NCBI GenBank assembly: GCA_050613775.1
Contig: JBODTK010000135.1
Span: 186,001 to 250,000 of the forward strand
DNA from: Neocallimastix sp. 'constans'
Taxonomy: Eukaryota
Direction of reading: 5' to 3'
Length of the DNA: 64,000 nt
Below the pieces are notes generated by a model. That model saw nothing but the letters and a program-made list of their open reading frames with translations, was not told the DNA's origin and did not search any database. The position numbers and the translations under genes were made by a program. Positions 31,483-61,839 of the stretch are shown piece after piece; within the stretch, counting starts at the first letter, position 1; each line of letters opens with the position of its first letter.

Positions 31483-32175
31483 TTCATGGTACAGGACTTT
31501 TCATTTATTTATTTTCAATAATAATATATTCTAATTAATTCTAATTAAACTTATTTAATTATTTCCGAATATTATCTAAACTAATTAAACTCAACATTAA
31601 TATTCTAATGTTTTTAAATATTAACTAAGCTCTCTTTTATTTTATTTTAAACCCCTTAACTAACTTAATTATTATTTAAACTTAAAGCTATTATATTAAC
31701 AACACAGCTTAACACTAAATTAAAACACCCTTAATTTATTTTACCTTATTTTATTCTAAAATTTAATTTATAAAATTTTGAGAGAGAGTTTTTAATATTT
31801 TTTGATTTTACAAGTTATTTATAGAATTTAATAAAGTTTTTTAATTGGTTCAAATAAATTTTTAATTAATTAAAATAAAATAATGTATAAAAAATAATAA
31901 AATAATATATAAAAATAATAAAAATTAAAGTAAAAATAAAAGTAAAAGTAAAAATAAAAATAAAAATATAAAATAAAAATAAAATATAAGATAAAAATAA
32001 TATAATAAAAATTAAAATAAAAATAAAGTAAAAGTAAAAATACAAATAAAAATTTAAAATAAAAATAAAGATATAAAATAAAAATAATATAAAAGAAATA
32101 AAAACAAATATAAAATAATAAATTCAATAATATAAGCAATATTAGATTGTTCCGTATCAAGATGCCCCCGTTGAG

Positions 32176-36884: not shown

Positions 36885-37212
36885 TCTCTTACTTTCTGTT
36901 GTTAATATTTTAATATTTTATATAACTAATTAAACTGTTATTTTGTTATAAAAACCCGACCAGTAATCTTATTATTATACGCTAATTTCTGTGACGTTTC
37001 GTCCCCTGTGTTCATTCCGTCACTTCTCCTCGCACTTGCAAACGACTCGAAGATCTTTACACAGCCCTAATCCCCCACGCTGACCGAAATTAGCAGCTTG
37101 TATAATGCTGAAATTAAAATTACTGTTGTTTAAATAACAAAAGAAGGAAAACTTCTATTACCAGTTGAACAACAATAACAATATTTCAATCCAAAGGTTG
37201 ATGGATGGATCA

Positions 37213-38691: not shown

Positions 38692-39527
38692 TGTTATGGT
38701 TCGGGTTTTATTAGAATTTTATTTAATTATTTATTTTTAATATTTTTTTCTGTCTACATTTTAATTCTTGAAAAACTTCACTTATTTATACTTTTTGAAA
38801 AAAAATAAATATGTAAAGCCTTTCTACATTTTGTTATCATATTTAAAAAAAATAATCTACTATTACTAATTACTTCAATTTTATATTAATTTAAATTAAT
38901 TAATTCATAAATATTTTTATTTTAATAAATTTTGTTTATATAATTTTATATTATTTTTCATATACTAAAACTAAATTATTTAATATATACGAAAAGAAAC
39001 AAACAAAATTTAAAAAGATTTTACAGAAAAATAAAGTTATTTTAATCAAGAATGTTAATATAATATTCTTATATTTTATATAAAATAAATTTAAAAACTA
39101 TAATATATTTAATATTTATTATTAATCAATTAAGATTTGATTTTATTTGTGGGGAATAAAAAAATATTAAATAATCAATTTAAAAATAAAATAAAATACT
39201 AAAAAGAATACAAGTTTAATATTGATACAATATAATAATAATATAATAATATATTTGAAAATAAAAATAAAATATTAATATTGATAATAAACACTTTAAT
39301 AAAATAATAAAATTTAAGGTTAAATTATAGATATTGATATTAATAATAAAAATATAGAATTATTGATAATATTTTAGAAACTTTTAATAAAAATAAAAAA
39401 AATATATTTAGAAAATATTTTAGTATAGAAAATATAGTAAAGTAATATTAAGTAAAGAATAATATACTGGATTCTAAAGTAAGTTGAAATTCTAATTAAT
39501 AATCCATTATATGTTCGTTCTTTACCA
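38692..39527 (-). mobile_element. Solo LTR (stack member)
   Basis: TGTTA...TACCA, TSD TCAT at 38688-38691 and 39528-39531. Confidence 0.85.
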
Positions 39528-39837
39528 TCATCATGTTAAGGTTTTAGAGAATTAAATAAAAATAAAGTAAGAAACACAAATTTTATTTATTTATTTATTA
39601 TTTTTATTTATAAATTTATTTGATTTTATTTGATGATATTTAAAAATTAGTAGCAAAATTTACAACTATTTATACTTTTTTTTTCAAGGCATAAAAGTTG
39701 TTCTTGCCACTAAATTACATTTTATTATTATTTTTCTTTTTATATATAAAAACTATTAAATTTAAATTGATTTTTATAATCAATTATATAAAATTTAATT
39801 ATAACAATATAAATAAAATACATTTATAATATTAATA

Positions 39838-39901
<64 letters not shown>

Positions 39902-40406
39902 CTATCTAAAATATTACTAATAAGAATTTATTTAATTGGCTAAAATTTTTATTACAATCTGTTAAAATATTCAAATAAAAATAAAAATACTATTCTAATA
40001 TAAAGGTTTTTAATAAAATAAAATATTTTTCAATATAAAATAAAACATTTCGATATAAAATTTTATAATAAAAGTTAAAATATAATATATAAATTTTTAA
40101 TTATCAATATATAAAAATATTATTAATACAAATTTTCATTATTAATATAAAAATAAAAAAATAAGATTTATTATTAATATTGTTAATATAAGTTTTAAAT
40201 ATATAAAAATATTACTATTAATATAAGATTTAATATAAAAATTATAAAGTTTAATATAATTTTTGATCTAATTTTTAATCTTTGAATTTAAAAATTTATT
40301 AAAGTACAAAAATAATAATGTACACATAATGTATTAGAAATAAATCGTAGATTTAATTAAGAATGCATTATTTAGTACATTCTTATTAAGATGCCCCGAC
40401 GAAGAC

Positions 40407-43400
40407 TCAAGCTTCTCTGTAAGCGGAGTTAAACTTTACTAAATTTTTAAAATGAACATTCCTATCGAGTTGTTTCCCAGTTTTCTGATCGATTAAGGTT
40501 GCCGTGTTGAATTGAATTTTTAAAATTTTAAATGGTCCATTGTAATATGGTTCTAGCTTAGTGCGGCTAAAGTTTCTAACAAGAACAAGATCACCAGCTT
40601 TTAATTCTTTTCCTTTTTTCATACTTATTTGTTCTTCTCGTCTTGTTGCCCAATACTTGTTAGCATTCTTCACATTTTCGCATGCTTCTCTAGTCCATTG
40701 ATAATGACGAACAAATTTTTCCATTAAAATTTCATCATACGATTTACCTGCATTTTCAATTGTTCTTATGGCTATATCATAAGGCTGTTGGTCTTCTCTT
40801 CCATATACTAATTCAAAACTAGAATGTCCGGTAGCTGTGTTTTTGGTAGTTCGAAGTGCCCATAAAGCAGAAGGTAAAACTTCATCCCAATCTTGATTTT
40901 TCCTTCCTAATAAACGAAGTAATTTTCCAATTTCTTTATTTCGGTTTTCAGTGAGACCATTGGATTCAGGGTGATAGGTAGCTATGAATTTTACATAAAC
41001 ATCATAAAGATCAAGAAAGATTTTAGTCATATCAGAAGTGAATTGGACTCCATTATCAGTAGTAATAACTTGAGGTACACCATGTCTTGCAAAAACGTTT
41101 ATTAAAAATTTAATTATATCAGAGGAAGTTATGTTTTCAGTGGGTTCGGCTTCAACCCATTTGGTAAAGTAATCAACAGTTACTATAATATATTGATTAT
41201 TATTTCTTGTTTTTGGTAACGGTCCTATAATATCTAATCCTAAATGCACAAAGGGACCCTCCACTTTAGTTGGATGGTTTTCGGTTGGTTCTGGATATGG
41301 TTGAGGACGATTTAACTGGCATTTTTCACAATTACTAACAATTCTTTTGATATCTTTAATCATATGATTCCAATAAAAGTTTTTCTTAAGTCTTTGATAT
41401 GTTTTGTAATATCCTTCGTGGCCAATATTATGAGCTTCTAAAATTAATTTAAACCTTTCATTTTCGTCCGTTATTAATTTTCTATAATTTCCATTGTCGA
41501 TAAAATAATCTTCACCATCAATAACAGTAAACTTTTCATTAATAAATTCCTTTATAACTTTAGATAATAATTCTTCATTATTTCCATTAGTAATTTTTGT
41601 TAATAATATCTTTCTCTCTTCCTTACTTTTCATTCTTAAAAGAGCATCAGCTAACACATTCTTTTTGCCTGATTCATATTTTATATTAATTCCGAGCATA
41701 CTAGCGGTTAGACACCATCTTGTTTGCCTTGCATTCAAAGGTTCTTTATTCTTAAATAAACCAACTAATGGTTTATGATCTGTGTAAATAGTTGTAGGTA
41801 ATGGATTTCCTTCAATATAAGATTTAAATTTAGTCATACAGTAAAACAAAGCGGTTCCTTCTAAATCGGTAATACCATAATTCTTTTCAGCTTTCTTTAA
41901 ACTTCTACTTATAAAGTGTATTGGATGCTCCTTACCGGTTTCTTCTTCTTTTTGTAAAAGAACTCCACCAATTCCATTATACGAAGCATCAGTTCTAATG
42001 ATAAAAGGTTTGTCAAATGACGGAAATTTTAGAATAGGTGCATTGATTAATTTTTCTTTTAGGAGTTCAAAGCTTTCTTGTTGTTCTTTATTCCATTCAT
42101 ATTTAGTATTCTTTTTCAATAATTTACATAAAGGTGAGGTAATTTGAGCATATTTAGGAATAAAGTCACGATAATATCCTATTGCTCCTAGAAATGATCT
42201 TAATTCATGAATTGATGAAGGGGCTTCCCACTTCTTAATAGCTGTTATTTTACTTTCCATGGGACTTAATCCTTTAGTAGTAAGTTTGTGACCTAATACA
42301 TCAACTTCAGTTTGAAGAAAATGGCACTTTTCAATATTAATTTTTAACTTGTTTTCTTTAAATACTTCTAATACTTGTTTAATATGAATTAAATGTTCTT
42401 CGATACTTTTTGAATAGATCAAAACATCATCAATAAATACGTAAACAAATTCACCAATAAAAGGGAATAAAATTTTATTCATTTCTCTTTGGAAGGTTGA
42501 GGGAGCTCCAGTAAGTCCAAAAGGCATAACCTTAAATTGATAATTTCCAAACTTAGTAGTGAAAGTGGTTACTTCAACGCTTTCTTCATCCATTAAGATT
42601 TGGTGAAAACCAGAAAATAAATCAAGAGTTGTAAATATTTTAGCTCCTCCGAGACTATCAAAAATTTCATCTATATATGGAACTGAATAAGAATCTTTTT
42701 CTGTCATATCATTGACTTTTCGGTAGTCAATGCACAAGCGCCACTTTCCATTGTGTTTTAGAATGAGTACTACTGGAGATGACCATTCTGAACAGGATGG
42801 TTCTATCAATCCTTTCTTAATAAGCTTTGTAAGTTCTTCTTTTAAGATATCTGATTTTAATTTAGTTAACCTATAACTTCTTAATTTTACTGGCTTTGCA
42901 TTTGCTTTCAAACGGATCTTATGTGGTGAAAGTTTAGAAGGAGTTAGTTCTTCTGTTGAAGTGGCAACTATGTCAATCATTTCTTTGAGAATTTTAATAA
43001 TTTGTTCTTTATAATCTTTATTTAAGGTACTTAAAAATTCATCACTCTCAATAAATTCCATTGGAGTTAATTCCTTTATAATTTCCTTTTCATTATTCGT
43101 TTCTTTAACTTTTCTAATAGTGCAAATTATACTTTCTTCATCATAATATTGATTATTTATTTTAGCTATTTCTTCGTATTCACTTTCTGACAAAAGTTTA
43201 CATAAACTGTTTAAGGTCGGATGAATAAATAAACAATGATCGATTTGAGTTTTAAAGTTTATTAACATATCATAAAATGAGTCTTCTTTCTCAATAATTC
43301 TAAAGTCCGCATTAAATTCATAATTATTAATTTTTACTGGTAATTGAACAATAATTCCTTCCGAGTATTCTTCATCTTGTGTTGCTAGTTGGATTCTTCC

Positions 43401-44417
43401 ACGACTTTTTCCAACTGTTTCATATTCACCAGGTAATTTATCAAAATACTGCTTAGTAACGATGCTTAGGTTACTACAAGAATCAATTAAAAGTTTTCCT
43501 AGTACTCCGTCAACACTTGCATCAACCATTGCTAAGTCTTCTTCGGCTACTTCATTACTTTTACTTATGTAGCTATGATCATAGTTATTCACTAATAAAG
43601 TTCGTGCTATTACATTGTCTACAGTTCCAATTATTTTAGATTTTTCTAACTTTAAACCTTGAGTTAATTGTGAACGAATTTTCGGACATGCATTCAAGAG
43701 TTGACCTATCGTAATACTGGATTTAAGATTATTTAAATCATCCATAATATTGTAAGGTTCTTTATTATTCATCATTTTGATATTCCTTTTTACTAACTGA
43801 GTATTTTCATTATTAGTTTCTTTAGTTTTTGTTGAAATTAATTTTTCCAAAGTATTAGTTTTATTTTGTTGATTATCTTTATTCATTTCTATATCTTCTA
43901 TTTCATTATCGATTACAAGTATATCTTCAGATTCAACTTTTTTCTTTCCTTTTGATGAATAATTGTTGTTTTCTTCTTTACTTTCTCTTACTCTTGTTAT
44001 ATTTCTTAATTCCTTTTCTTTTTGTTTTTCTTTGTTAATATTTGGTTGAGTTAAAATTGAAGGAAGTATTTGATTTTTATAAACTTTATTTGGTTTATTA
44101 TGTAGCTCATTTTCTTTCTTCTTTCTTAAAGCAGGAGTTGCGAAAGGACGTGGATTATCTTTTAAACTTTTATGTACTTTCTTGGAATTATTTTCTTCCT
44201 TTTCGCTGTTATTATCATTCATTTTTCTTTTTATAGCATTTATAATGATATTATCCTCACTTTCAGTTGTGTCACTAAAATCAGATTCTTCAGATTCTTT
44301 ATTAAAGGAATTATTATCAATTGGGGTATTCTTGGTAAAAGTATTATTTTGTAAATTATTTAATGAAGCTATTGTTTTGTCATTGGGAGTGCTTCTGCTC
44401 CCATTTAGAAGTTTAAA
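40407..44417 (-). CDS. pol: Pol of element E (via -1 frameshift)
   Basis: LIDSCS, FIDD, TDAS, HHCC, DDE; close homolog of C pol. Confidence 0.94.
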   Translation of the reverse strand, partial: FKLLNGSRSTPNDKTIASLNNLQNNTFTKNTPIDNNSFNKESEESDFSDTTESEDNIIINAIKRKMNDNNSEKEENNSKKVHKSLKDNPRPFATPALRKKKENELHNKPNKVYKNQILPSILTQPNINKEKQKEKELRNITRVRESKEENNNYSSKGKKKVESEDILVIDNEIEDIEMNKDNQQNKTNTLEKLISTKTKETNNENTQLVKRNIKMMNNKEPYNIMDDLNNLKSSITIGQLLNACPKIRSQLTQGLKLEKSKIIGTVDNVIARTLLVNNYDHSYISKSNEVAEEDLAMVDASVDGVLGKLLIDSCSNLSIVTKQYFDKLPGEYETVGKSRGRIQLATQDEEYSEGIIVQLPVKINNYEFNADFRIIEKEDSFYDMLINFKTQIDHCLFIHPTLNSLCKLLSESEYEEIAKINNQYYDEESIICTIRKVKETNNEKEIIKELTPMEFIESDEFLSTLNKDYKEQIIKILKEMIDIVATSTEELTPSKLSPHKIRLKANAKPVKLRSYRLTKLKSDILKEELTKLIKKGLIEPSCSEWSSPVVLILKHNGKWRLCIDYRKVNDMTEKDSYSVPYIDEIFDSLGGAKIFTTLDLFSGFHQILMDEESVEVTTFTTKFGNYQFKVMPFGLTGAPSTFQREMNKILFPFIGEFVYVFIDDVLIYSKSIEEHLIHIKQVLEVFKENKLKINIEKCHFLQTEVDVLGHKLTTKGLSPMESKITAIKKWEAPSSIHELRSFLGAIGYYRDFIPKYAQITSPLCKLLKKNTKYEWNKEQQESFELLKEKLINAPILKFPSFDKPFIIRTDASYNGIGGVLLQKEEETGKEHPIHFISRSLKKAEKNYGITDLEGTALFYCMTKFKSYIEGNPLPTTIYTDHKPLVGLFKNKEPLNARQTRWCLTASMLGINIKYESGKKNVLADALLRMKSKEERKILLTKITNGNNEELLSKVIKEFINEKFTVIDGEDYFIDNGNYRKLITDENERFKLILEAHNIGHEGYYKTYQRLKKNFYWNHMIKDIKRIVSNCEKCQLNRPQPYPEPTENHPTKVEGPFVHLGLDIIGPLPKTRNNNQYIIVTVDYFTKWVEAEPTENITSSDIIKFLINVFARHGVPQVITTDNGVQFTSDMTKIFLDLYDVYVKFIATYHPESNGLTENRNKEIGKLLRLLGRKNQDWDEVLPSALWALRTTKNTATGHSSFELVYGREDQQPYDIAIRTIENAGKSYDEILMEKFVRHYQWTREACENVKNANKYWATRREEQISMKKGKELKAGDLVLVRNFSRTKLEPYYNGPFKILKIQFNTATLIDQKTGKQLDRNVHFKNLVKFNSAYREA

Positions 44418-45310
44418 GACTTTTTGGAATATATTTCTTTTTTATTTTTTTCCATAATCTTATTTAATTGAGGGCAATAGTATGAGTAATGACCTTCTTC
44501 CTTACAGAAGAAGCAAGTTTTAACAGATAAATTTCTCATTTTCTGGGTTGATTCTTCTATAATATCTTGAGGTTTCAGTTTATTATTTGTTTGACTTGTT
44601 TGGAAAGTTTCGTTTCTTCTTTTAGGATAAAGTCTTGAAGTAGTACTGTTTTGATTATTTTGATTATGCTGGGAATTATTAACATTATAGGTATTAATAT
44701 TATTGTTCCTTACAGAAAGTCTATCTACTTTCTCGGCAATTTTGAAAGCTTTCTCCATACTTATATCATCTTTAAGGGATAATTTCTTCCAGGCTTCATA
44801 ATTATTTTGAATAGAGTCAATATAATCTAGTACACCAATGCGCTTTCTTCTCTTTTTATCAAGTTTAGTGTACAAAGTTCTATATCTTACATTAAAGTCT
44901 TTAATCTTTTCGTTTCTTTTAATTCGCATTGCACGAAGTTCTTTAAGAAGTAAATTTTGGTCTTCTTTAATACCGTAAAAATTTTCAAGACTTGAAATAA
45001 TTTTTTCAAGAGAAGGAAATTTATCATCATCAACATTTTCTTCTTCATCATCTTCTTCTTCATCTGATGAATCATCACTTTCATCATCACTATCTTCTCC
45101 CAAATCTTCAATAACGCGTTGTACTTCACCAGAGCTGGTAAGTAAACAAGCATTAAATATTGTTTCCGGATCTGTGATACCTTGTATCTTGATCCAAAGT
45201 TTTAATTCAGTAGCCCAGGACTTTATATCTAAATTGTCCTTGCTAAGCTTCACTATGTCTCGTAATTCTTTCTTTAATTCTTTAAAACTTAAAGTACTTT
45301 TAGTAGACAT
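44405..45310 (-). CDS. gag: Gag of element E
   Basis: 301 aa with CFFCKEEGHYSYYC knuckle. Confidence 0.92.
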   Translation of the reverse strand: MSTKSTLSFKELKKELRDIVKLSKDNLDIKSWATELKLWIKIQGITDPETIFNACLLTSSGEVQRVIEDLGEDSDDESDDSSDEEEDDEEENVDDDKFPSLEKIISSLENFYGIKEDQNLLLKELRAMRIKRNEKIKDFNVRYRTLYTKLDKKRRKRIGVLDYIDSIQNNYEAWKKLSLKDDISMEKAFKIAEKVDRLSVRNNNINTYNVNNSQHNQNNQNSTTSRLYPKRRNETFQTSQTNNKLKPQDIIEESTQKMRNLSVKTCFFCKEEGHYSYYCPQLNKIMEKNKKEIYSKKSLNF

Positions 45311-47015
45311 TTCGTTTTTAGTTAATAATTTTTTTATTGTAAATTAACGAGGTTATTAAATACGAATAAATTTGAAAGTCCAACTTTAAAAATATAATTT
45401 AACAAGTAATTTAATATCGAATCAAATTTTAAAACAATATATCTTAGTAATTTTTGAAAATAATAATTTTATTTGCTTTCTTTAGTAAGTATAAGCTCGA
45501 AATCCTTATCGACAACTTAGTAGAAATTATAAAGCACGAGGTTCTTTTCGACTACTTTTTTAAGAATAATTTTAAGTTCGAAATCTTTATCGACAACTTA
45601 ATAGAATAATTTTAAGTTCGAAATCTTTATCGACAACTTAATAGAATATTTTTCAAGCTCGAAATCTTTATCGACCACTTGAATTTTGTAATTTAGTATA
45701 TTTGTAGTAATAAATTTAGAAGCAAAGTTTTATTTATTATTTTCACCTTTCAAAAATTTTTCTTTTTAAACGATAAATATTGTATTGTTATAGCTAATAA
45801 AATTATTAATTAATTATAATTATTAAATACAAAAAAATAATCTTTATTGTCGTACAATCTGATAGTACACACTGTCTGACGTGCAGCTTACCTAATGGTG
45901 TCATGCCACGCGTGTGCCACGATTACTATATTCAATATAAAATATAGCAGTTCAGAGCCCACTAGCCCAATTACTATGTAGGATAAACTTAATCCGATAA
46001 TCTATGTACGGAATAAAAAAATTTTAAAAGTATTCAATAATATTTTTATTAACTAATAAAAATTAACTAAAAACACAATATTTTCAAAGTAAATTAAGAT
46101 TCTATTACAGGAATTATATAACAAATAAAGTACCAGTAATAAAAAAAAATAAAAAAAATTTAAATGGCGAAGTTAGCCAAAGTCTGATACTTTATATAAT
46201 AAAGTGCCTTATAACTAGCACAAAGAAAAGTAAAAAAAAATTATATAAAAAAAACAATCTTACGCCTTCGGTGACGTAAGCTCCTTATTCGCCAGTGCTT
46301 GGAAAGTACCCGCACCTTCGTGTGTTGAAACGTTGAAGGTTGAACTATTATTACCGGGTCGGTAACCAAATACCTTCGTCTACTTTCCAATTAATCTCCA
46401 AATTAACTACTATTCAATAACCTACTATGAATAGAGTTAATTTGTTGCTATCTGAGAATACACTGTGTATGAGCTCTATCCGCTCCTTGTTATAATTTTA
46501 CAAAATTTGTTTTTTTAGAATCTTAATTTTACTTATTTAAAAAAAAAAAATTTTTTTTTTTTATATATATATATCAAACAAGCGCCATAGGTTAATCAAA
46601 GGATTAACGACTTACTTGTTTATCAATATAAAATAAAAAAAAAATTAAAAAAAAAATCTATGTTATTTACTATTATTTCTATTTAATTCCCCGATATCGC
46701 CACCATATAAATGTTAAGGTTTTAGAGAATTAAATAAAAATAAAGTAAGAAACACAAATTTTATTTATTTATTTATTATTTTTATTTATAAATTTATTTG
46801 ATTTTATTTGATGATATTTAAAAATTAGTAGCAAAATTTACAACTATTTATACTTTTTTTTTCAAGGCATAAAAGTTGTTCTTGCCACTAAATTACATTT
46901 TATTATTATTTTTCTTTTTATATATAAAAACTATTAAATTTAAATTGATTTTTATAATCAATTATATAAAATTTAATTATAACAATATAAATAAAATACA
47001 TTTATAATATTAATA

Positions 47016-47079
<64 letters not shown>

Positions 47080-47582
47080 CTATCTAAAATATTACTAATA
47101 AGAATTTATTTAATTGGCTAAAATTTTTATTACAATCTGTTAAAATATTCAAATAAAAATAAAAATACTATTCTAATATAAAGGTTTTTAATAAAATAAA
47201 ATATTTTTCAATATAAAATAAAACATTTCGATATAAAATTTTATAATAAAAGTTAAAATATAATATATAAATTTTTAATTATCAATATATAAAAATATTA
47301 TTAATACAAATTTTCATTATTAATATAAAAATAAAAAAATAAGATTTATTATTAATATTGTTAATATAAGTTTTAAATATATAAAAATATTACTATTAAT
47401 ATAAGATTTAATATAAAAATTATAAAGTTTAATATAATTTTTGATCTAATTTTTAATCTTTGAATTTAAAAATTTATTAAAGTACAAAAATAATAATGTA
47501 CACATAATGTATTAGAAATAAATCGTAGATTTAATTAAGAATGCATTATTTAGTACATTCTTATTAATCAGTTAGTAAAATT

Positions 47583-49070: not shown

Positions 49071-49600
49071 TCCAGGGGTCTTCTTTTTTAATATTTACAT
49101 ACTATTACTTCGCAATTCCACCTTTCTATTTTTCTATTTTTACCACTATTTTAACCACGTTTAAGTGATCCTAAATTGATAAACAACCTAATAAATATCC
49201 TATAAATCCATAGATATAACAACACATAACTTTTGATATAAACATCATAAATAATAATATTTACAACAACCATAATTTTTTTAAAACTTGAATTTCTCTG
49301 GCAAAACAAAACATTTTTTAAAAACAAATTACATCAATAAATTCTACTCATTTTAAGCTTTCTAACGATACCAAAATTATTACCTATTAACATAATAAAC
49401 ATACCAAAAATATTAAAATTAAAAAAATTTACTATCAAAAAGTGACCTTTTACCTATCAAAAGTGGACTTTCATCAACAAAAGTGGACTTTTAAATTTTA
49501 CAAATCTAACCTCATTTTCTAACCTACAAATCTAAATGAACACTTCATTATAATTTAAATAAATCACACCAAAATAAATGAATAACACAAATTAAATAAA
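49071..49600 (+). repeat. Left arm of ~530-bp inverted repeat flanking the capsid module
   Basis: Near-perfect reverse complement of 53459-53987. Confidence 0.95.
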
Positions 49601-49762
49601 AAACTAACTATATTATAAATTTAATATACCATTTCATACCCATAGCATAATTTATCTTTATTTATCTTTAATCATCCATCGTAATCATACATAAAATACA
49701 TCATTTAATAACAAATAAAACAAATAATAAATATAACTATAAATAAATAATGACTATCCTTC

Positions 49763-50629
49763 TTAAATATACTTATTATAACGTAAACCTCTAAAAGTGA
49801 TATCAATACTGAACTCAATATCAAAAGTAGTAGGATACAACTTATTAGTACCAATAACTTTATGTACTAATTCTCCTCTTTCATAAGTAAAGAAAGATTG
49901 TGTACTAACTGGGTTTGGTGAACGAACTGCAAGTAATAAAGTAGGTTTAAAAGCTAAAGATGGTGAACAAAGAATATTATTAGGTAAATCTTTATTTTCA
50001 ATAGCATCTCCTAAATCATAATAATATGGTTCCCTATTCAATCTTTCATATTGACCTTTTAAATCTCTTGTTGACACATATTGACTTTTTTCTTGACTTG
50101 TACTTGGATAAAGCATACGTGTAATACCTTCTGAAGATCCTGGTCCTAAATGTTTAGTAATAGCACTAGAATAATTTTCAATACTACCTGCAATAATACA
50201 ATATCTATCACCTCTCATATCCTTAATAAATTGACTTTCATCAAGTCCGGATCTATCCAATGTTGTAATAACCATTAAAGATCTTGGTAAACTATATCCT
50301 TTTTCTGGATTAGAATCTCTTGAAGTAGCCCAAACAACTGGTGTAATTTTAACTTTAATGGCATTAATTTTGAATTGATCATATATTTCAGAATAATTTT
50401 GATAATATTCAGTATTTAACAATACATCATAAATATTGACTGCTAAAGTACCACTATCAATGAATTTATTTTCATAAATTCCTTCATTATTATCTGAAAC
50501 ATCTAACGTAACTTCGTTATATGTTTGGCCACAACTAAATGATTTATTACAATTAATTATTACGTTAGTACTATCTCTTTGCTGATCAGCAAATTTACGA
50601 TTATAATATATTCTACGTCTAAATGACAT
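49763..50629 (-). CDS. cap: CRESS-virus-like capsid protein paralog 2
   Basis: Basic N-terminus MSFRRRIYYNRK; YSEIYDQFKINAIKVKITP; C-terminal DITFRGLR; colinear with 51539-52945. Confidence 0.8.
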   Translation of the reverse strand: MSFRRRIYYNRKFADQQRDSTNVIINCNKSFSCGQTYNEVTLDVSDNNEGIYENKFIDSGTLAVNIYDVLLNTEYYQNYSEIYDQFKINAIKVKITPVVWATSRDSNPEKGYSLPRSLMVITTLDRSGLDESQFIKDMRGDRYCIIAGSIENYSSAITKHLGPGSSEGITRMLYPSTSQEKSQYVSTRDLKGQYERLNREPYYYDLGDAIENKDLPNNILCSPSLAFKPTLLLAVRSPNPVSTQSFFTYERGELVHKVIGTNKLYPTTFDIEFSIDITFRGLRYNKYI

Positions 50630-50779
50630 TTTGATGATAAACGTTTATAAACACTAAAATATTGCGAATTTTTACACTTATTTATACTTTTTTTTTATTT
50701 TTAAGTTGATCTTATGATCATTTTTATTAAACTTTATTAATTTTATTTTTAATTTTAAAATTATTTATTATTTTATAAT

Positions 50780-51404
50780 TTAAGTAAGTGAACAAGCAAA
50801 TAAACTTTGATAGAGATACAAAGATGATGCATTAGCAAATGTCTGTGTATAGATATCCATTTGTAATGAAACAAATTTAGTTAATTCATTAATACCATTA
50901 CAGAAATAAAGATATTTATCATTAGAATAATCTAACGTAGTATTATAATAAATAGGAACATCCGAAACCGCATAATTTTGAGCACTAGTTGAACTATTAT
51001 ATACTGCCGTAATTTGGAAAGATTCAGTACCTCTTTTAATTAATAATAAAACTTTTCCTGCTGGAATAGATATATTTCCAGATGTAGTGAATTTAATGAA
51101 ATTAGTTGTATTAATAGCTACTTTTTTCGTTGTTCCACTTGTTTTAACAACATATGCAATACTAGGTTGTGGTATTTTTATACTTGAATAACCAATTGTA
51201 TTATTTGGGGGTGTTAAAGTCTTACCATAATCTGTTTGACTTGTGCCTGGATACATTGCCAATGTAGGATATACAGAAACACTTGCCATAGCATCATACC
51301 CCGTACTTGGATTAATAGTAGCATAACCATTATTAAGAGTCGTGATTGTAAAATCTCTTACATCTTCGATATTTAATTGCGGTCCACTAGATTCTTTATT
51401 AGAA
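50780..51404 (-). CDS. Beta-rich viral ORF; probable spliced C-terminal extension of capsid 1
   Basis: Frame is open upstream of ATG 51289 to an acceptor TTTATTATTTATAG (G at 51405); in phase with donor GTAAGT at 51542. Confidence 0.6.
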
Positions 51405-51538
51405 CTATAAATAATAAATAAATAAATATATACACATTTTAACTGTGTAAATATTAATTAATATCTTATAAGATATTAAGTAAGTTTAAGAAAAAAATTA
51501 AATTATTATAAACAAAATGACTAGTCGTGGGTATCTAC

Positions 51539-52945
51539 TTACATTACTTCGGATTTACGAAGTCCTCTAAATGTAACTCCTATATCAAATTCTAAATTAA
51601 ATTTAACTGGTTTAATACAATTATAAACATCAACTGTATTATTATTAATTGCATCAGTAATATCTTTGGATCCTAAAACACCGATTAATAAAGTTGGTTT
51701 AAATGGAATAGTTGGGTCTGAAAATACACTAGTTAAACTTGAAGCATAATCTTTATTATTAACTGGTTGTTTAAGATAATATAAGAAATTCTTATCTTTA
51801 TAACTATCCGTTAATGAACTAGTACTATAATATACTGATTTTTCTTGTTGACTACTTGGGTATAAATATCTAATACAATTAAATGTAGCTCCTGCAACTA
51901 ATTGTTTTGTTTGTGCACTAGAATATGAAGTAATTTCATCACCAATATTAACAAAATATCCTAAATCTCTATCTACTGGATCACTCATTTTAATATACTG
52001 ATTACTATCTGGATTAGGAATAAAGTATCCATTACAATTATCAATTTGTTGCGCATCTAAACCACTACGATCCCAAGCAGTTACAACTGTTAATGCTTGT
52101 GGGAATATATATCTATTTCTATATTTCTGAGTTTCTTTATACTGTCCATCATAAACTGGATCAGTGATTTCTTCATTAACTGCACCAGAACTAGTATTTA
52201 TAGTATATTTAAACATTAACTTTCCAATAGCTGTTGAACCAGTAATAGTATCAGGGTATACTCCAGATTCATCTGCTAACGATGCTTGAGTTGTCTGTGA
52301 TACACTAGTAGCAACATAATTTAATGAACCATCTTGATTAGTAGGATCTATAAATTGTCCATCAATAGTTGCTAAATATAATTGTTTATTAGCAGTAAAT
52401 GTAACTGGACTTGGTGGTTTTCTAATAAATGCTACTTGACCTAAATCATCTTGAATTTGAGTAATATATTCTGGATTATATTTATATATTATATCATTTG
52501 GTGCAGGAACGATTGTTCTAATTGATGATATTTTAGCTTCATCTGGATTATTAACAGTACTACGAGCTTGATCATAAGTTTGCCATTGTGTTGGTGTGAT
52601 CTTTACCTTAACACTAGTAACTCTAAATTGGTCATACATATTAGCATAAGATTTATAAAAACTACTACGTTTTAACATTTCATAAATATTAACTGCAGTA
52701 ACACCAAGAGGAACAAAACTAGGAGTACCATTATTATCATAATATGCTGCATCAACACCTGCATAACAACTGTGCATCAGATTAATAGTAACATTTGAAA
52801 TATCATTTTGTTGATTAGCTGCTCTTAAATTTCCTCTAGCTCTTTTAACAACAGTACCAATATTACCTCTACCTGTCCTAGATCTTTTAAATCTATAACC
52901 AGTTGAATAACTTCTTCTACCGTACGTTCTATATCTACCACTCAT
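51539..52945 (-). CDS. cap: CRESS-virus-like capsid protein paralog 1
   Basis: Arg-rich N-arm MSGRYRTYGRRSYSTGYRFKRSR; YANMYDQFRVTSVKVKITP; C-terminal GVTFRGLR. Confidence 0.85.
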   Translation of the reverse strand: MSGRYRTYGRRSYSTGYRFKRSRTGRGNIGTVVKRARGNLRAANQQNDISNVTINLMHSCYAGVDAAYYDNNGTPSFVPLGVTAVNIYEMLKRSSFYKSYANMYDQFRVTSVKVKITPTQWQTYDQARSTVNNPDEAKISSIRTIVPAPNDIIYKYNPEYITQIQDDLGQVAFIRKPPSPVTFTANKQLYLATIDGQFIDPTNQDGSLNYVATSVSQTTQASLADESGVYPDTITGSTAIGKLMFKYTINTSSGAVNEEITDPVYDGQYKETQKYRNRYIFPQALTVVTAWDRSGLDAQQIDNCNGYFIPNPDSNQYIKMSDPVDRDLGYFVNIGDEITSYSSAQTKQLVAGATFNCIRYLYPSSQQEKSVYYSTSSLTDSYKDKNFLYYLKQPVNNKDYASSLTSVFSDPTIPFKPTLLIGVLGSKDITDAINNNTVDVYNCIKPVKFNLEFDIGVTFRGLRKSEVM

Positions 52946-53052
52946 TTTTAATAATTAAACAACACTTTAATATAAAAAACACATACAATACACTCCTATT
53001 TATACTTTTTTACAAAATTAAGGTTAATCATAAGACTTTATTAATTAAAACT

Positions 53053-53406
53053 TTATTTATTGTTATATAATACATTAGGATCGTAACGTTCTTTAATAAA
53101 TTTTAAAGGTACTAGTTCCATATATTCATCAGTATAACATCTACGCTTATAATCAAGAGTATATAACTTATTATTTAATTCTTTAAGTAAGTCCAATCTT
53201 TTAGCATTACCAGCCAAATAATTTTGTATTTTATCATTAGTAACAGTTATTTCGTTAGATACTGTATTAATAAAGCTCCTAATAGATTCAGATTCCTGGT
53301 TTAAATCTCTAATACAATCTGAAAGTAATCTCAACTTTGAATACACAGAAGCTTGTTGAAAATTAGCTGTAAGTTCAATCTCACTATTATTATTATCTTT
53401 AGTCAT
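53053..53406 (-). CDS. Small hypothetical helical protein of the viral module
   Basis: 117-aa ORF inside the inverted repeats, co-oriented with the capsids, with the same upstream AAAAGTATAAA motif. Confidence 0.6.
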   Translation of the reverse strand: MTKDNNNSEIELTANFQQASVYSKLRLLSDCIRDLNQESESIRSFINTVSNEITVTNDKIQNYLAGNAKRLDLLKELNNKLYTLDYKRRCYTDEYMELVPLKFIKERYDPNVLYNNK

Positions 53407-53458
53407 TTTAATCTAAATTTTTAATTTAAGAAATTTATTGGGTTTTTATACTTTTCGA

Positions 53459-53987
53459 TTTATTTAATTTGTGTTATTCATTTATTTTGGTGTGATTTAT
53501 TTAAATTATAATGAAGTGTTCATTTAGATTTGTAGGTTAGAAAATGAGGTTAGATTTGTAAAATTTAAAAGTCCACTTTTGTTGATGAAAGTCCACTTTT
53601 GATAGGTAAAAGGTCACTTTTGATAGTAAATTTTTTTATTTTAATTATTTTTGGTATGTTTATTATGTTAATAGGTAATAATTTTGGTATCGTTAGAAAG
53701 CTTAAAATGAGTAGAATTTATTGATGTAATTTGTTTTTAAAAAATGTTTTGTTTTGCCAGAGAAATTCAAGTTTTAAAAAAATTATGGTTGTTGTAAATA
53801 TTATTATTTATGATGTTTATATCAAAAGTTATGTGTTGTTATATCTATGGATTTATAGGATATTTATTAGGTTGTTTATCAATTTAGGATCACTTAAACG
53901 TGGTTAAAATAGTGGTAAAAATAGAAAAATAGAAAGGTGGAATTGCGAAGTAATAGTATGTAAATATTAAAAAAGAACTCTCCTGGA
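53459..53987 (-). repeat. Right arm of the ~530-bp inverted repeat
   Basis: Reverse complement of 49071-49600. Confidence 0.95.
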
Positions 53988-54150: not shown

Positions 54151-56222
54151 AAAAAATTTATTGAAAAAATTGAGGGAAATTTGTTGATACTTGATAACGC
54201 CACAGTAAATAGTTAATGCGCCATAATTAGTATAGTGTATAAATTAATTTCTATATTTGGTAATTGCTATATTAGGAATTTTACATTTGTGTAATATTAA
54301 TGTAGATCAGTAAATGTTGACATGGTATACATAATTTGTAGATCAGTTGTATCAATTATATTAAATTTTGTGTTAAATTAAACGTTTCATGTATAAAGCG
54401 GAGTCATAAATTAAATGTTTCATGTATGAAGTTGAGTCATATATTAGATAAATTAATTTTCGATGTTGATGAATAACCAATAGAATAATATTATAATATA
54501 CATTGTTTACATAGTAATATATAGAGCAATACATATATCAATATAAATACATTAATGTCACGTATATTATTTTTCAATCTTATAATGATTGAAAAAATAT
54601 AAATAGAACCATTTTTGTCATGGTTCTAAAGTTCCAACTTATATAACATTAACACTTTTACACTCAAGTTGGAACTTTTTTTTTAACCACAAAAAACATG
54701 TGGCTTATATCTATTCACGTGCGGTTCCGAAACGCGCTCTCCCCATATTAATTTCAATATGTTAATATTTAGTAATTAGTTGGCCTAGACTAATTCCTAA
54801 ATATTTTAATAATGTTAATTTAATAATAATTATTATATTATAATTTTTTAATATTGAAATTCAAATAACTGAATTACTGAAATTGAATTGAAATTCAGTT
54901 ATTATCTTAACAACATTGTTAAAGTTTTAAGTGATAATTTGGTCTTAACGATTAGGTCAAGATGCCAAATTATAGTAATTAATTAATAATTTAGATTTAC
55001 TCTTATTTAAAACATATTGTTATTAGTAAATTTTATAAATAAATTTTTATTTAAAATATAAATTTTTACCTTAATAATATTTTACTACATTATTATTTTA
55101 TATAATTATTACTATAATTTAAATTACAATAATCCTACAAGGGATTAATCAAAGATTTAAACATGTATTTATATAAAATAATTAATTATTAAAATATTAA
55201 TTATTAATATGAATATGTAATAGTATTAATACAAGTTTGATATTGATAATATAAAATAAGATAATAATATAAATATTTAATATAAATAAAATATAAGAAT
55301 CTAGTATAGCTAAATATTATATTTTATAATTAAAATATAATTAGTGTAACAAATCTTACTGTTACTTAAGATTGTTATAAGGTTTTTTACACAAAAGGTT
55401 CTCGACACTAAAGTAATTCAAAATATGTTTTATTAAAATAAGTTTTTTATTAGTAAAAATGTAAATTATTATTTTATTAATTAATCATTGTAATATTTTA
55501 AATTACTTTAAAATTAATTAATAAAAGCACAAGTAAAAATATTTTATTATGAAATTTTACACCTATTTATAGTTTTTCAGGAAAATTAATTATTTTAAGT
55601 TATCAGTTGTTATTAGTAATTATTAGAAATAAAAGAAAATTAAAGAAAATTAAAGAAAACAAGTTTTCTTTCTAGAAAATGAATCTTAGATAAAAAATGA
55701 TAAAAAATATTAATAAAATAGATTTTTCTAGTTTTATCGGTTCAATTGTTTAACCGATAAACACTAGTAATTTCTTTAATATTCTAGTTATAATAAATAA
55801 AAAGTTATTAAAATTTTGAAAGAGTGGGTGTCGAACCCTAAGGGTTCAGCCCGATGGTTATGGTAACTTACCATTGAACCATAGTTACTAATTTACTAGT
55901 TATGAGTTTCGTTACATGGTCCTCCTCTAGGATTCGGATACCAGACGAATCTCAAAGCTAGGCTAAACTATACTAAGAAAATTTTATTTAATTATTTTAA
56001 TATATAAATTATTTTAATAGTTATTTGGTGTAAAATTTCAATACATGATAAACATAAAAATACATTATTAATAATAAGGTTACATGAATTTAAATAATAT
56101 TTATATTAATAAGTAAAAATAATAAAGATTATTGATATTGATATTAATAGAAATAAATTTGATATTAATAAATATAAATTTTTGTATAATTAATATTATA
56201 GATTCATTATCTAAATATAAGT

Positions 56223-59123
56223 TTATTTGTTTGATTTATTAAATTTTTTGAGTATTTCTGGACAGTTGAGGTTTTCTTCCGGTTCCCAAGATGCTTCAGA
56301 TAAAGGATATCCTTTCCACTTAATAAGATATTGAATCTTTCCATAATGTTTTCTTTTATCAAGTATTTCTTCTACATCATATTCTTCTTCATCATTAACT
56401 ATAATTGGAGGTGGAGGTTCCTTTTTTCTTTTAAAATTGTCTTTGTAGTATGGCTCAAGTTCTGATACATGGATAATTGGGTGTATTCTTATATTTTTTG
56501 GAAAATCAATTTTGTATGTTACTGGAGAGACTTTTTCAATTATTTTATAAGGTCCTAGCTTTCTTGGTTTTAATTTTTTATTTTTATTTCTTAATATGAG
56601 TGAACTGTTTATCCAAACTTTGTCGTTTACTTTGAATTCAGGTGCTTTAATTCTGTGTTGGTTGGCGAATTTTTCTTGTTTATTTCTTGCTTGTTTTAAA
56701 TTTTCTTTTAATTGTTTGAAAAGTTTCGCTAAGTTTGTTGTAAATTCTTCAGCACGCGGAACATCAATAGAACTTGGCACAGCTGGTGAGAAGCGAGGGT
56801 TGTAACCATAATTTGCGTAGAAAGGTGATTTATTTAATGATTCTTGAATAGAATTGTTGTAGCAGAATTCAGCAAGGAATAGATAATTATGCCAATTTGA
56901 ACCTTTAAAATTAGAGTAACATCTGAGAAATTGTTCTACAACGGAGTTCACCCTCTCCGTTAAACCGTTAGTTTGATGGTGAAAGGGAGAAGAAAGTTTC
57001 ATTGAGATATTGAGAGTTTTGCAAATAGAAATCCAGAATTTAGAAGTGAATTGAGTACCTCTATCGGAAAGAATTTCATTTGGTAATCCATGAAGTCTGA
57101 AAATATGAGTCATGAATGCCTTAGCAGTATCTTCAGAAGAAGGAACGTTAGGAAATGGGATGAAGTGACCCATTTTTGTGAATCTATCGAGAACAACAAA
57201 AATACAAGTATATCCATTAGATGAAGGGAGATCAGTGATGAAATCCATGGAAAGCGAAGTCCAAGGTCGGTCAGGAATTTCTAGTGGGTTCAGAAATCCA
57301 TAAGGTTTGTGTCTAGAATCCTTTGAACGACAACAGATTTCACAAGATTTAATATAGTCTTTAATATCTTTTTGCATAGATGACCACCAAAAGTCACGAT
57401 TGATTAAGGAGAAAGTTTTCTTGAAACCAAAATGACCAGCAGATGGGGAGTCATGACAGATATTTAATACGGAAGAACGACAGTTAAGGGGAACATAAAT
57501 TTTTCCATCAAAGAGTAAGAAGTTGTTACTTAAAGAAAATTTATTAGATTCTGGGAAGTCTTGTTTAGAGTTGAGTTTTTTGCAGATTTCATTATAATAT
57601 TTATCATTCTTATATTCATGGAGTATTTGATCATTTAAAGAGGCAATGGAAGTGGTAGCGCAAAAATTTTCAGGTTTTAAGACGTTGAAAGGAATGTCAG
57701 AGGACAGTTCTTCTTCATTTGATGCATAATCAAGTCTTCGAGAAAGTGCATTCGCATATATTTCACTAAAAATATCCTTAAATGGAAGTAATTTCTTTGG
57801 TAATGATTTATTTACTTTATTACTTTCTTTATCTTCTTCTTTTTTATCATTCTTTTTAATAGTATTTAAAGGAACATAAGTAGTGAAGGCGCTAGGAAGT
57901 ACAAGACAATTGGAAATACAATAGTTGGATTTGAAAGAGAGTTCTTTTGAGGCAAAGTCTATAGTGGGATTATGAGTTTCTAGCCAGTCAATGCCTAAAA
58001 TAGCACAATACGAAGGAAGGTCAACAACATAGAAACTTGTTTTACATATGTGGTTTTTATATTTTAAGGATATTGGTGCAGTTTTACCTATGATTGACTG
58101 AATACCGCCGATTCCAGATACGTTAAGGAGATTACATTCACTAGAGTAAGGAATATTGTTTTCTTTTGCGAAGTATACATCCATTAAATTAAGTTGAGAG
58201 CCGCAGTCCAGAAGAATTTTAGTTTTTGTAGAGATATTGGAAACATTAAGAGAGAATTCAAAAATTGGTAGCTTTACATCGGGTTGATCAGAAATTCTTA
58301 TTCTTGGAATAGTTTTAGGTTCAAGATTAGTGATATGAGAACTGCTAGAAGAGGCTTTATTTCTGTTTACTAGTGGGCAATGGTCAAGGGAATGGTTGGC
58401 TGATCCACAATAGGCACAAAGATGTTCTTTTCTTCTTCTTTCCTTTTCTTCATTAGACAAAGGACCTCGGGTATTGAATTTGAAAGGCTTTTTCCCTTTA
58501 TTTTGTCTTCTATTATTATTGTTTCTGTTATTATTTCTGTTATCATTATTATTATTATTATTTGATCTGTTTTGTGGATTAGAAAATTGTCTATGCGCAG
58601 CAATACGACTATCTAGTCTAGAGGCAATAGTTTGTAATGCGAAAAGAGATCTTGGTCCTGGAAACATTTCATATATTTTAGTAGCAATTTGATCGTTAAG
58701 TCCATTGAGGAAAGCATCCATTTTAGCTTCTTCATTCCACGAAGATTCGTCAGAATATCTATTGAATTCGAGAATATAGTTTGTTATTTCACCGATGCGT
58801 CTTTGTTTAATTGTCTTCAATTTCTGGTTAGCAATGAAAGTCGAATCGTAGCTCCCAAAAGTAGCCTTAAATCTTGAGGTGAATTGTCGATAGTTATTTA
58901 AACATGGATCGTTATTTTCAATTAAAGTAGCAGCCCAGTTCATTGCAGAGCCGTAGAGTCTAGAAATGATATACGCAACCTTTATTGGGTCATTATTAAA
59001 TCGTTCGGGATCAAGCATGAATATTAAATTCATTTTTGCTAAAAATCCTTTAAAGTAACGACGATCTCCAGCGAATCCATCTTTATTGGTAGCACTGGCA
59101 TTTAAAAAGGTATCTTCTTCCAT
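56223..59123 (-). CDS. Gag-PR-IN-chromodomain polyprotein of element G
   Basis: [27 protein letters not shown], and chromodomain YDVEEILD...YLIKWKGY...SWEP; no YxDD. Confidence 0.92.
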
Positions 59124-59797
59124 TTTCTTGCCTTTTCAAAATAGATTTATTTGATAATTTAATTATTGAAGAACTTTTATTTAAGGTAAATACAATTTAA
59201 ATTTCGCTTTTAATGCCTTACAACTAAAAAAAAACCGGCAAAAGCTACTAACTAGAGGTATATACTAGACCTCAAAATAAAATTAAAAACTATATATTTT
59301 AATGTCGCTTTACCTTCACGACCAACCTATAGCCTTCGGTGACTATAGTTCCTTATTCGCCAGAGCTTATTCGAATAGAGCAACCACCGAACTGTTGAAG
59401 TTGGTTGGTAGGTTGTGGTTCTCTTTTAATCCACACTCTCTTTACACTCTAGGGTTTTGAAGCCCGTTTATATTCAAATAATTAACGACTATAGTTTCTA
59501 ACCTACTGAAACTAGTTAATATACGCCGAAACTCTGTTTATGAGCTCTAACCGCTCCTAGTATATTTATCGTATTACCTTAAAAATATGGACACGAAAAC
59601 TTATTAAAAATTAAAAATTCTTTTTCTTTTTTTGTGTTGCTGTTCTTTCAGTGAATTTTAACTGAAAGAGCTGAGATGTAGGGCTTACGTCTGAGCCTAC
59701 CAGCGAGGGCCAACACAAAATTAAGGAATTTAAATAAAAAGAATAAAAGAGAATAAGGATTGTCTATACAGATTCTCCTTATTAGTAAATTTTATTA

Positions 59798-59837
<40 letters not shown>

Positions 59838-59967
59838 TTATTTAGCTAATTATTAATATATGTATTTAGTTTTAAGTATTAATTTATCTAAAATATATTA
59901 TATTCTTTCACTTAGATTATAGTTAAATTTTATCTAAAATTATGTATATGTCCACTTAATTTTCTTT

Positions 59968-60190
59968 CAGAATTTATCTAATAAATAGTATATTTGTTCA
60001 ATTAGTTTTACTATAAATTTATCTAATAAATAATATATTTGTTCAATTAATTTTACTATAGAATTTATCTAATAAATAGTATATTTGTTCAATTAATTTT
60101 ACTATAGAATTTATCTAATAAATAGTATATTTGTTCAATTAATTTTACTATAAATTTATCTAATAAATAGTACATTTGTTCAATTAATTA
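59968..60190. repeat. ~46-bp tandem repeat, about 5 copies, in G leader
   Basis: Unit AATTTATCTAATAAATAGTATATTTGTTCAATTAATTTTACTATA(G/A). Confidence 0.9.
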
Positions 60191-60278
60191 TATTATAGTT
60201 TTTATCTAAGATACTATATATTCATTCACTTAAATATATTATAAAATATAGGGTTAGGGTTATATATTCATTTAATAA

Positions 60279-60323
<45 letters not shown>

Positions 60324-60612
60324 TAAAATCCAAAAGGTATAGGTAGAGTTTCAAAGAGGAATCCAAAGGTAGATAGAATTTAATTTGAAAGTATGTTTAT
60401 AATAAAGAGAAAGCGAAGAATCTAAGGAAAAATTGGGCAAGAATTTGAGTAAAGAAGGAATACAAAAGAAAGGTAGATAACCTATAAAAAGAAATAATCC
60501 AAAAGATACTAGATTCAAGAATAGAATTTTTTAAGGAAGTATTCCACAGAAAAAATATTGTTTTGGTGATAATATAATTATTAGCGGTAGCCCAAGAGTT
60601 GTTTAAAGTTTT

Positions 60613-60686
60613 AAAAGAGTAGATTCCAAAAGAGTAGATTCCAAAAAAGTAGATTCTTAAAAGAGTAGATTCCAAAAGAGTAGATT
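60613..60686. repeat. 15-bp tandem repeat, 5 copies, in G leader
   Basis: AAAAGAGTAGATTCC units. Confidence 0.9.
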
Positions 60687-61289
60687 TGTCTCGAGAAGGT
60701 TTCGTGTTTTTTGTCAAAGGGTGCTTTTATTGTAACAAATCTTACTGTTACTTAAGATTGTTATAAGGTTTTTTACACAAAAGGTTCTCGACACTAAAGT
60801 AATTCAAAATATGTTTTATTAAAATAAGTTTTTTATTAGTAAAAATGTAAATTATTATTTTATTAATTAATCATTGTAATATTTTAAATTACTTTAAAAT
60901 TAATTAATAAAAGCACAAGTAAAAATATTTTATTATGAAATTTTACACCTATTTATAGTTTTTCAGGAAAATTAATTATTTTAAGTTATCAGTTGTTATT
61001 AGTAATTATTAGAAATAAAAGAAAATTAAAGAAAATTAATGAAAACAAGTTTTCTTTCTAGAAAATGAATCTTAGATAAAAAATGATAAAAAATATTAAT
61101 AAAATAGATTTTTCTAGTTTTATCGGTTCAATTGTTTAACCGATAAACACTAGTAATTTCTTTAATATTCTAGTTATAATAAATAAAAAGTTATTAATAT
61201 TTTGAAAGAGCGGGTGTCGAACCCTAAGGGTTCAGCCCGATGGTTATGGTAACTTACCATTGAACCATAGTTACTAATTTACTAGTTAT

Positions 61290-61776
61290 TGATAAGAATG
61301 TACTAAATAATGCATTCTTAATTAAATCTACGATTTATTTCTAATACATTATGTGTACATTATTATTTTTGTACTTTAATAAATTTTTAAATTCAAAGAT
61401 TAAAAATTAGATCAAAAATTATATTAAACTTTATAATTTTTATATTAAATCTTATATTAATAGTAATATTTTTATATATTTAAAACTTATATTAACAATA
61501 TTAATAATAAATCTTATTTTTTTATTTTTATATTAATAATGAAAATTTGTATTAATAATATTTTTATATATTGATAATTAAAAATTTATATATTATATTT
61601 TAACTTTTATTATAAAATTTTATATCGAAATGTTTTATTTTATATTGAAAAATATTTTATTTTATTAAAAACCTTTATATTAGAATAGTATTTTTATTTT
61701 TATTTGAATATTTTAACAGATTGTAATAAAAATTTTAGCCAATTAAATAAATTCTTATTAGTAATATTTTAGATAG

Positions 61777-61839
<63 letters not shown>

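Follow-up and report, generated by a model that had tools for sequence, protein, structure and literature searches.

Cassandra-type LTR elements have captured host 5S RNA, and the RTE and MTE signals of other LTR retrotransposons are located towards the 3' end of the RNA. In the Ty3/gypsy group, packaging and dimerisation signals are so far poorly defined. The dimerisation and packaging signals of retroviruses are described as lying between the primer site and gag (PMC6844567), and the Gag protein of MMTV is described as binding looped purines (PMC8096270). A published set of fungal RNA motifs concerns five other fungi, and the accessible part of that report mentions no retrotransposon, LTR, HDV or IRES (Gao et al., 10.1101/2021.02.01.429235). 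Our literature search, which most subscription papers lay outside, found no account of the RNA described below or of structured leaders in gut-fungal retrotransposons.

We investigated a structured module of about 230 nt in the 5' leaders of LTR retrotransposons within a 64-kb window (the whole stretch of Neocallimastix DNA analysed, 64,000 nt), which has a GC content of 12-32% and is dense with nested elements. We conclude that the module is real: a structured RNA, apparently not described before, that is under selection in two retrotransposon lineages distant from each other. It is not in Rfam, and as a compact motif it can be cloned and its fold tested.

Module copies and their carrier elements

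Three copies were identified in the window, in elements E (46259-46487, reverse strand), F (62368-62596, forward strand) and G, a chromovirus (59327-59558, reverse strand). Elements E and F belong to one family, with 2711 of 2712 aligned bases the same across the LTR, leader and gag start and 0 differences in 236 over the module, and are therefore counted once. A preliminary description of this DNA had reported four sense-strand blocks common to the E/F and G leaders; all four were found in place on the sense strand of the elements, and the sharing is thus real, but it involves two distinct sequences and not three. The local alignment of F with G scores 52, against a mean of 18 and a maximum of 29 in 500 dinucleotide shuffles, with similarity at shuffle level in the flanks and in the middle of the module.

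We additionally identified a third distinct copy on a metagenome contig (L001), which has the core in common with E/F and G. This copy precedes a gag that shares 79% identity with that of G over 166 residues, and the contig ends before the primer site. Between G and L001, the core is kept at 65 of 73 and 37 of 40 bases and the downstream spacer at 165 of 203, and the variable domain at 53 of 101. L001 was the one true locus among four returned by the pattern scan of metagenome contigs, the other three being chance matches in bacterial coding DNA. A scan of prokaryote genomes gave one match, within a coding gene and without the remaining blocks, which was dropped, and scans of viral contigs found no copy. 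A covariance-model search of the 64-kb window found three strong matches (the next at E 0.22), and none outside retrotransposon leaders.

Element E (reverse strand) has a 5' LTR at 46712-47566 and a 3' LTR at 39534-40388, and a tRNA-type primer-binding site starting with TGG at 46689-46705, which corresponds to 62150-62166 in F and is near-identical in element C (28661-28677). Its gag (44405-45310) encodes one CCHC knuckle, and its pol (40407-44441), which overlaps gag in a different frame, encodes reverse transcriptase (RT), RNase H and an integrase without a chromodomain. The 5' LTR of F (61290-62143, forward strand) sits about 14 bp inside the 5' LTR of G, in opposite orientation.

Element G (reverse strand) has a 5' LTR at 60731-61289, with 3 differences in 559 from its 3' LTR (55345-55916), a TATA at 60948-60958 and a transcription start predicted near 60916. 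Its self-priming site of the Tf1/sushi type (60721-60731) has 11 nt complementary to the LTR at 60906-60916, and its single ORF (56223-59123; 966 aa) encodes a Gag with one CCHC knuckle, protease, integrase and chromodomain. It was assigned to the chromoviruses on Pfam matches (Chromo, E 3.6e-16; SH3_Tf2-1, E 1.4e-17) together with the self-priming site. RT and RNase H are missing in frame from this copy, yet its 966-codon ORF is open and its LTRs are near-identical. Relatives of the G protein that carry RT are 89% (P0001) and 82% (P0002) identical over the integrase half, and the RT-less forms P0012 and P0022 form a separate branch from G in the integrase tree; RT loss thus recurred, with RT-less forms arising more than once. 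A further relative, P0020, is labelled Orpsp1, which we take to mean Orpinomyces; together with the base composition of the window and the occurrence of its sequence in metatranscriptomes of animal faeces, this label points to an anaerobic gut fungus as the likely host. The idea that RT-less G borrows the reverse transcriptase of E through the shared RNA is weakened, as the closest long relatives of G carry RT.

The module lies between the primer site and the gag AUG in E, F and G, within long leaders of 1.4-1.8 kb and 220-1170 nt from the primer site. Its distance to the gag AUG is 948 nt in E, 202 nt in G and 437 nt in L001.

Fold, covariation and known RNA classes

A single sense-strand fold accommodates all three distinct copies, at 0.2 (F), 0.6 (G) and 4.9 (L001) kcal/mol above the unconstrained fold. 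In F (forward strand), it begins with hairpin H1 (62370-62384; E 46471-46485, G 59542-59556), which has an invariant 4-bp stem and a 7-nt loop and contains an invariant palindrome, GAGCUC, at 62379-62384. A 5-nt linker leads to the 6-bp long-range helix H2 (62390-62562, pairing 62390-62395 with 62557-62562), which encloses the long hairpin H3 (62411-62456), capped by an invariant 9-nt loop (62429-62437; E 46418-46426, G 59499-59507), and a variable domain (62465-62556) that is folded yet divergent among the copies, even between G and L001. Beyond H2 lie a purine-rich single-stranded junction of 12 nt, invariant except for its last base (62563-62574; E 46281-46292, G 59349-59360), and the 8-bp hairpin H5, with an invariant 6-nt loop and a covarying lower stem (62575-62596; E 46259-46280, G 59327-59348). 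The G lineage, including L001, has an extra hairpin, H6, 3' of the module (59304-59322, reverse strand).

In the three-row alignment, 97.2% of 71 cells are paired, compared with 26-44% in slid controls, and two-sided changes occur in 7 of 24 pairs (three sequences, two lineages). These pairing and two-sided-change values are reached by 2-3 of 500 shuffles, counts that are not probabilities, as the model was built from F, G and L001 themselves, the rows are related and the register of H3 varies with the alignment. Unpaired core columns are invariant in 37 of 41 cases, 28 of these 37 being purines, and paired columns in 31 of 48. L001 adds independent support for the shared fold, contributing another type of pair to the terminal stem, a change from U-G to C-G in the closing helix, and one mismatch. 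Of the stems cited in the preliminary description as compensatory, CTTAC/GTAAG versus CTATA/TATAG was recovered as the terminal hairpin stem and CAGTG/CACTG versus CAGAG/CTCTG as the long-range closing helix. The third (CTATTCA/TGAATAG versus TAGTTTC/GAAACTA, below the 9-nt loop) also exists, but its compensatory count hinges on the register chosen, the register of H3 being alignment-dependent; E/F and G resemble each other little in the sequence of the stem beneath the AGUAGGUUA loop.

Taken alone, F folds better than its shuffles (z -4.24), and the sense fold of G alone is no better than shuffles (z about -0.6 to -0.73), weaker than the fold of its antisense strand (z -2.0). A function of the antisense strand is less likely, as two U-G pairs form on the sense strand only. 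Variants in the run X6 were uninformative as covariation data: in the longest variant contig 6 of 10 listed paired positions are broken, mostly by transitions, and the invariant junction is altered too, a pattern resembling a decayed copy.

We searched for matches to described RNA and insertion classes. Rfam gave 0 matches in the 64 kb at the gathering threshold and 0 in 59000-63200 at E<=10, and its three matches in L001 (E 6-8) all lie outside the module, in agreement with the preliminary description, which could not assign the module to a known family. A hammerhead core (CUGANGA with GAAA) was found in 0 of 6 strand-regions (F, G and L001, both strands), and an HDV descriptor (P1, P2, P3/L3, P1.1, P4 and J4/2) gave 0 matches on either strand of F; its matches in G and L001 are not common to F and consist of weak stems or AT-rich pairings. 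Both descriptors were written from recall, the HDV one being loose. Twister, twister-sister, pistol and hatchet gave no Rfam match at E<=10, the result that alone counts here, as a crude twister pattern matched 2 of 6 regions, F not among them. The module is also neither a SINE nor a MITE, the two insertion classes considered at the outset: all three copies lack A and B boxes and a tRNA, none of the three has terminal inverted repeats with a target duplication, and a 5-nt TTATA repeat flanks F only, with no duplications at G or L001 (0 of 2).

Further modules stand out in the leaders of this AT-rich genome, two of them described here. In the G lineage, a second structured module, a three-way junction at 59630-59720 (reverse strand), lies upstream of the first and covaries with L001 (about 186-275), and is not in E/F. 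Compensatory changes occur in its closing stem and one arm, and a donor-like GUAAG is conserved in a loop. Its invariant C-rich strand recalls HDV L3, yet the HDV test failed. Contigs of X6 and X14 show this module with other flanks, indicating a module in its own right. The E/F leader contains a third island, folded and rich in GC (45840-46010, reverse strand; 62845-63015, forward strand), variants of which appear with different flanks in contigs of X7 and X11. Elements C (27900-28130, reverse strand) and D (36950-37180, reverse strand) have GC-rich folded leader islands of their own, unrelated to the module, and the leader of element B has 9% GC and no folded island.

Patchy distribution and probable exchange between lineages

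The E and G integrases are 27% identical, and their Gags, each with one CCHC knuckle, could not be aligned (blastp, nothing at E<=10). Priming differs as well, E having a tRNA-type primer site and G priming itself, so that the carriers are distant Ty3/gypsy lineages with different proteins and priming modes, as had been proposed. The integrase tree, of 22 rows (six window elements and 16 of 63 database matches, 17 having been taken and 16 having passed a length filter), places E in a group with elements C, D and A (100/99); G falls with B and with relatives that carry RT (98/97). Element C, the sister of E (71% identity in Pol and 50% in Gag), lacks the module, and a covariance-model search with filters off found no remote copy in the C, D or B leaders at E<=10. 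Descent alone would need near-perfect retention of the module together with several losses, from which we infer lateral exchange, or double capture from one source. On these sequence comparisons, the module was likely exchanged laterally between the two lineages; the patchy distribution on the integrase tree fits the exchange suggested before. The position of F within a G LTR offers a possible route for such a transfer.

Insertions in the window cluster at the U3 end of the self-primed LTRs of chromovirus type (61289, 47567, 20756 and 20841; LTRs 55345-55916 and 7732-8375), a hot spot where B entered at nt 11-15, duplicating 5 bp, E and F entered at about nt 13-17, and C entered about 70 nt in. 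The idea that E rides on chromoviruses, targeting their LTR ends owing to the module, is weakened by the insertion of module-less B at the same spot. The 3' flanks of E (39500-39533) and D (31450-31483) are alike, both with 4-bp duplications of similar sequence, suggesting a target preference. The two flanks of E do not come from one continuous target, and E may thus be a recombinant of two insertions. A further element at 49071-53987 has terminal inverted repeats of 530 bp and, in tandem, three ORFs that resemble ssDNA virus capsids (Circo_capsid, E 2e-6, below the cut-off; atlas features, 0.91-0.94 against several clusters of ssDNA capsids). These ORFs had no match among solved structures, and no replication gene was found among the ORFs of at least 120 codons.

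Candidate functions and described counterparts

Contigs from sequencing runs cover the module in several variants. DNA carry-over in the RNA libraries is uncontrolled, and expression of the module is accordingly putative. Contigs attest to the presence of a form and not to its absence, and rare forms are dropped by assembly. A contig from X6 (RNA on record) spans 59100-59615 in one piece across the G module, an X9 RNA contig spans 62339-62589, and contigs of X4 and X14 (guessed to be RNA) reach at least 254 bases either side of the 3' core. The leader is unspliced in contigs despite donor-like GTAAG sites, which counts against an intron, spliceosomal or self-splicing: over G, no joint was found in three RNA or guessed-RNA runs, and over F one joint was found in one of four runs, within the module, with ends TC..TC and a depth of 4.4 compared with 187. 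This X9 contig lacks 62398-62553, a stretch that nearly coincides with the interior of H2. Either reverse transcriptase may have jumped over a folded domain or the DNA copy may carry a deletion; the contig supports the folded domain weakly. In X9, another variant joins the E-type 3' part at 62560 with different upstream sequence, indicating that more module subfamilies exist. Three of four runs (X7, X11 and X15) have no contig upstream of about 62560-62570. We rejected this gap as a sign of cleavage, as it coincides with the X9 assembly branch and holes in contigs prove nothing. A DNA contig of run X1 that omits 59288-59523 and 59584-59760, most of the module and of the upstream module, is a deleted minority copy (depth about 8 among thousands).

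The different priming modes of E and G exclude a role in priming, and the position of the module, its exposed purines, the single CCHC knuckles and the switchable palindrome leave packaging or dimerisation as a reading. We tentatively place this reading first, at less than even confidence: the module may be a genome-selection (packaging/dimerisation, psi-like) signal, likely acquired by one lineage from the other. On molecules in translation, scanning 40S subunits would pass through the module and melt its fold, hence the lack of an internal AUG; in untranslated molecules the module would refold and expose its unpaired loops, rich in purines, to the one CCHC zinc knuckle that Gag carries. Two genomes would pair through the GAGCUC palindrome as it leaves the H1 hairpin and forms a duplex between molecules, and transfer would have occurred by recombination between nested or co-packaged RNAs. 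Co-folding of the 5' hairpin as a dimer gives -13.6 to -18.5 kcal/mol, compared with 2 x -5.6 for a pair of monomers, but among about 68 invariant bases a 6-nt palindrome is no rare chance occurrence, and this one is partly in a stem, not a loop. Against packaging, a signal read by two unrelated Gags would be expected to drift; the near-invariance of the module is easier to reconcile with a shared partner from the host, or with a self-contained fold, than with reading by Gag. The absence of the module from C, the sister of E, and from element B is a further counter-point.

A host partner that would explain the invariance across unrelated Gags is provided by a translation-initiation element, either an IRES-like pad on which ribosomes land and scan, or an enhancer binding ribosomes or initiation factors for these long leaders, which we consider unlikely but a serious candidate. 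The size and multi-junction architecture of the module are IRES-like, and the spacer from module to gag is nearly free of AUG in all three copies (1 in 948 nt in E, with 11.4 expected; 0 in 202 nt in G; 0 in 437 nt in L001, with 2.8 expected). AUG usage is the one signal identified here that discriminates among the functional readings. Upstream of the module, E has two short uORFs and is not depleted of AUG (2 in 223 nt, 2.7 expected), which suits a possible internal entry. However, the upstream stretch is depleted too in the G lineage (3 against 10.8 expected in G; 0 against 3.9 in L001, which has no AUG in 1035 nt), as are the module-less leaders of C (1 against 24), D (3 against 11.5) and B (1 against 4.2). 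AUG is likewise absent inside the module in all three copies (1.7-1.8 expected in each, single copies not being significant, P 0.11-0.13), and depletion is much weaker in the LTRs and on the antisense strand than in leaders. Depletion upstream in the G lineage, within and downstream of the module and in leaders without it suggests that ribosomes scan from the cap through the leader, module included, and removes the need for an IRES, and the AUG pattern argues against the module as a ribosome entry site; avoidance of nonsense-mediated decay can also cause AUG loss. The range of distances to the AUG (202-948 nt), the other structured island between module and gag in E and the lack of a match to any Rfam IRES model also count against a translation element.

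A host factor is also central to the rather improbable reading of the module as an element for nuclear export or RNA stability, which would bring that factor to full-length, unspliced RNA as the RTE of IAP or the MTE of MusD does. These are described as complex LTR-retrotransposon RNA folds acting via host factors (PMC12786077), and so would be independent of lineage, and here the leader is kept unspliced though GTAAG sites are present, but there is no sequence or Rfam match, the known cases are mammalian, and the module is missing from the related elements C, D and B. The many unpaired bases that are invariant across the junction and distal loops, a possible 3-bp loop-loop pairing of two invariant loops and a junction strand reminiscent of HDV J4/2, located behind a helix like P4, would suit a catalytic RNA of a new class, such as a slow self-cleaving ribozyme yielding a translated sub-genomic RNA. 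Ribozymes are described as common in retrotransposons, but the cases covered in the accessible part of that review are non-LTR elements, Penelope elements and retrozymes (PMC6765202). The missing contigs upstream of about 62560 in three of four runs would agree with cleavage, but this contig start coincides with the X9 graph branch to another module variant, and contigs of X6, X4 and X14 cross the module intact. A cut between the primer site and gag would part R and the primer site from the rest of the genome, an argument against a ribozyme that cleaves itself efficiently. As the HDV descriptor gave no match in F and none common to all copies, and neither a hammerhead core nor an Rfam ribozyme was found, we regard this reading as distinctly improbable. 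Passive carriage of an insertion without present function (a SINE, a MITE or a captured host RNA) would agree with the sharp boundaries, the patchy distribution, the TTATA repeat at F and the decayed copy with pair-breaking transitions in X6. It is largely refuted, and in our estimate very improbable, by the lack of terminal inverted repeats, A/B boxes, tRNA and duplications in G and L001, by the confinement of all window copies to retrotransposon leaders, by a core that is kept between G and L001 while the middle has diverged, and by compensatory changes in both lineages. We give little weight to a more speculative proposal, in which a self-contained RNA machine of a new class (a ribozyme or a ribosome-recruiting fold) unrelated to any known family moves as a cassette from one LTR-retrotransposon lineage to another and switches genomic RNA between packaged and translated states; the leaders of these fungal elements would then be mosaics of several such modules.

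Among the ribozyme, IRES and packaging functions named in the preliminary description, the first and the classical form of the second are thus weakened, by intact contigs, failed descriptors and AUG depletion, and packaging is the putative front-runner. If the packaging reading is true, cis-acting signals can pass sideways between retroelement lineages with unalignable Gags; if the module is catalytic or IRES-like, it represents a new RNA class.

Compared with described systems, the module is like the captured RNA of Cassandra-type elements in being a structured RNA cassette borne by retrotransposons, but it matches no 5S RNA, tRNA or Rfam host RNA and is in the leader, not the LTR. Like the HDV-like ribozymes of R2, L1Tc and RTE elements, it is a structured RNA in a retrotransposon 5' UTR, with a helix followed by a strand presumably like J4/2. 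In contrast, it lacks P1, P2, P3/L3 and P1.1 in the required order, its RNA is intact in contigs, and its hosts are LTR elements, which have their own promoter. With IRESs (HCV-like, dicistrovirus IGR and gypsy) it has in common a length of about 230 nt, a multi-junction form, invariant apical loops and an AUG-poor downstream spacer, but it has no Rfam match and no start-codon pseudoknot, lies 202-948 nt from the AUG, and is preceded in the G lineage by AUG-depleted sequence. The RTE and MTE are likewise complex folds on full-length LTR-retrotransposon RNA, for which a host factor is possible (PMC12786077), but they are mammalian, with no similarity detected, and the module is in the 5' leader. 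Finally, the module differs from the packaging regions of retroviruses and Ty1 (the MMTV purine loop and DIS; Ty1 PAL1/PAL2) in having no sequence or Rfam similarity to them, in lying 220-1170 nt from the primer site, in being nearly invariant in lineages with unalignable Gags, and in that its function here is putative. It resembles these regions, as they are described, in its leader position, in a junction with unpaired purines, and in a hairpin palindrome that may switch to an intermolecular duplex (PMC6844567; PMC8096270).
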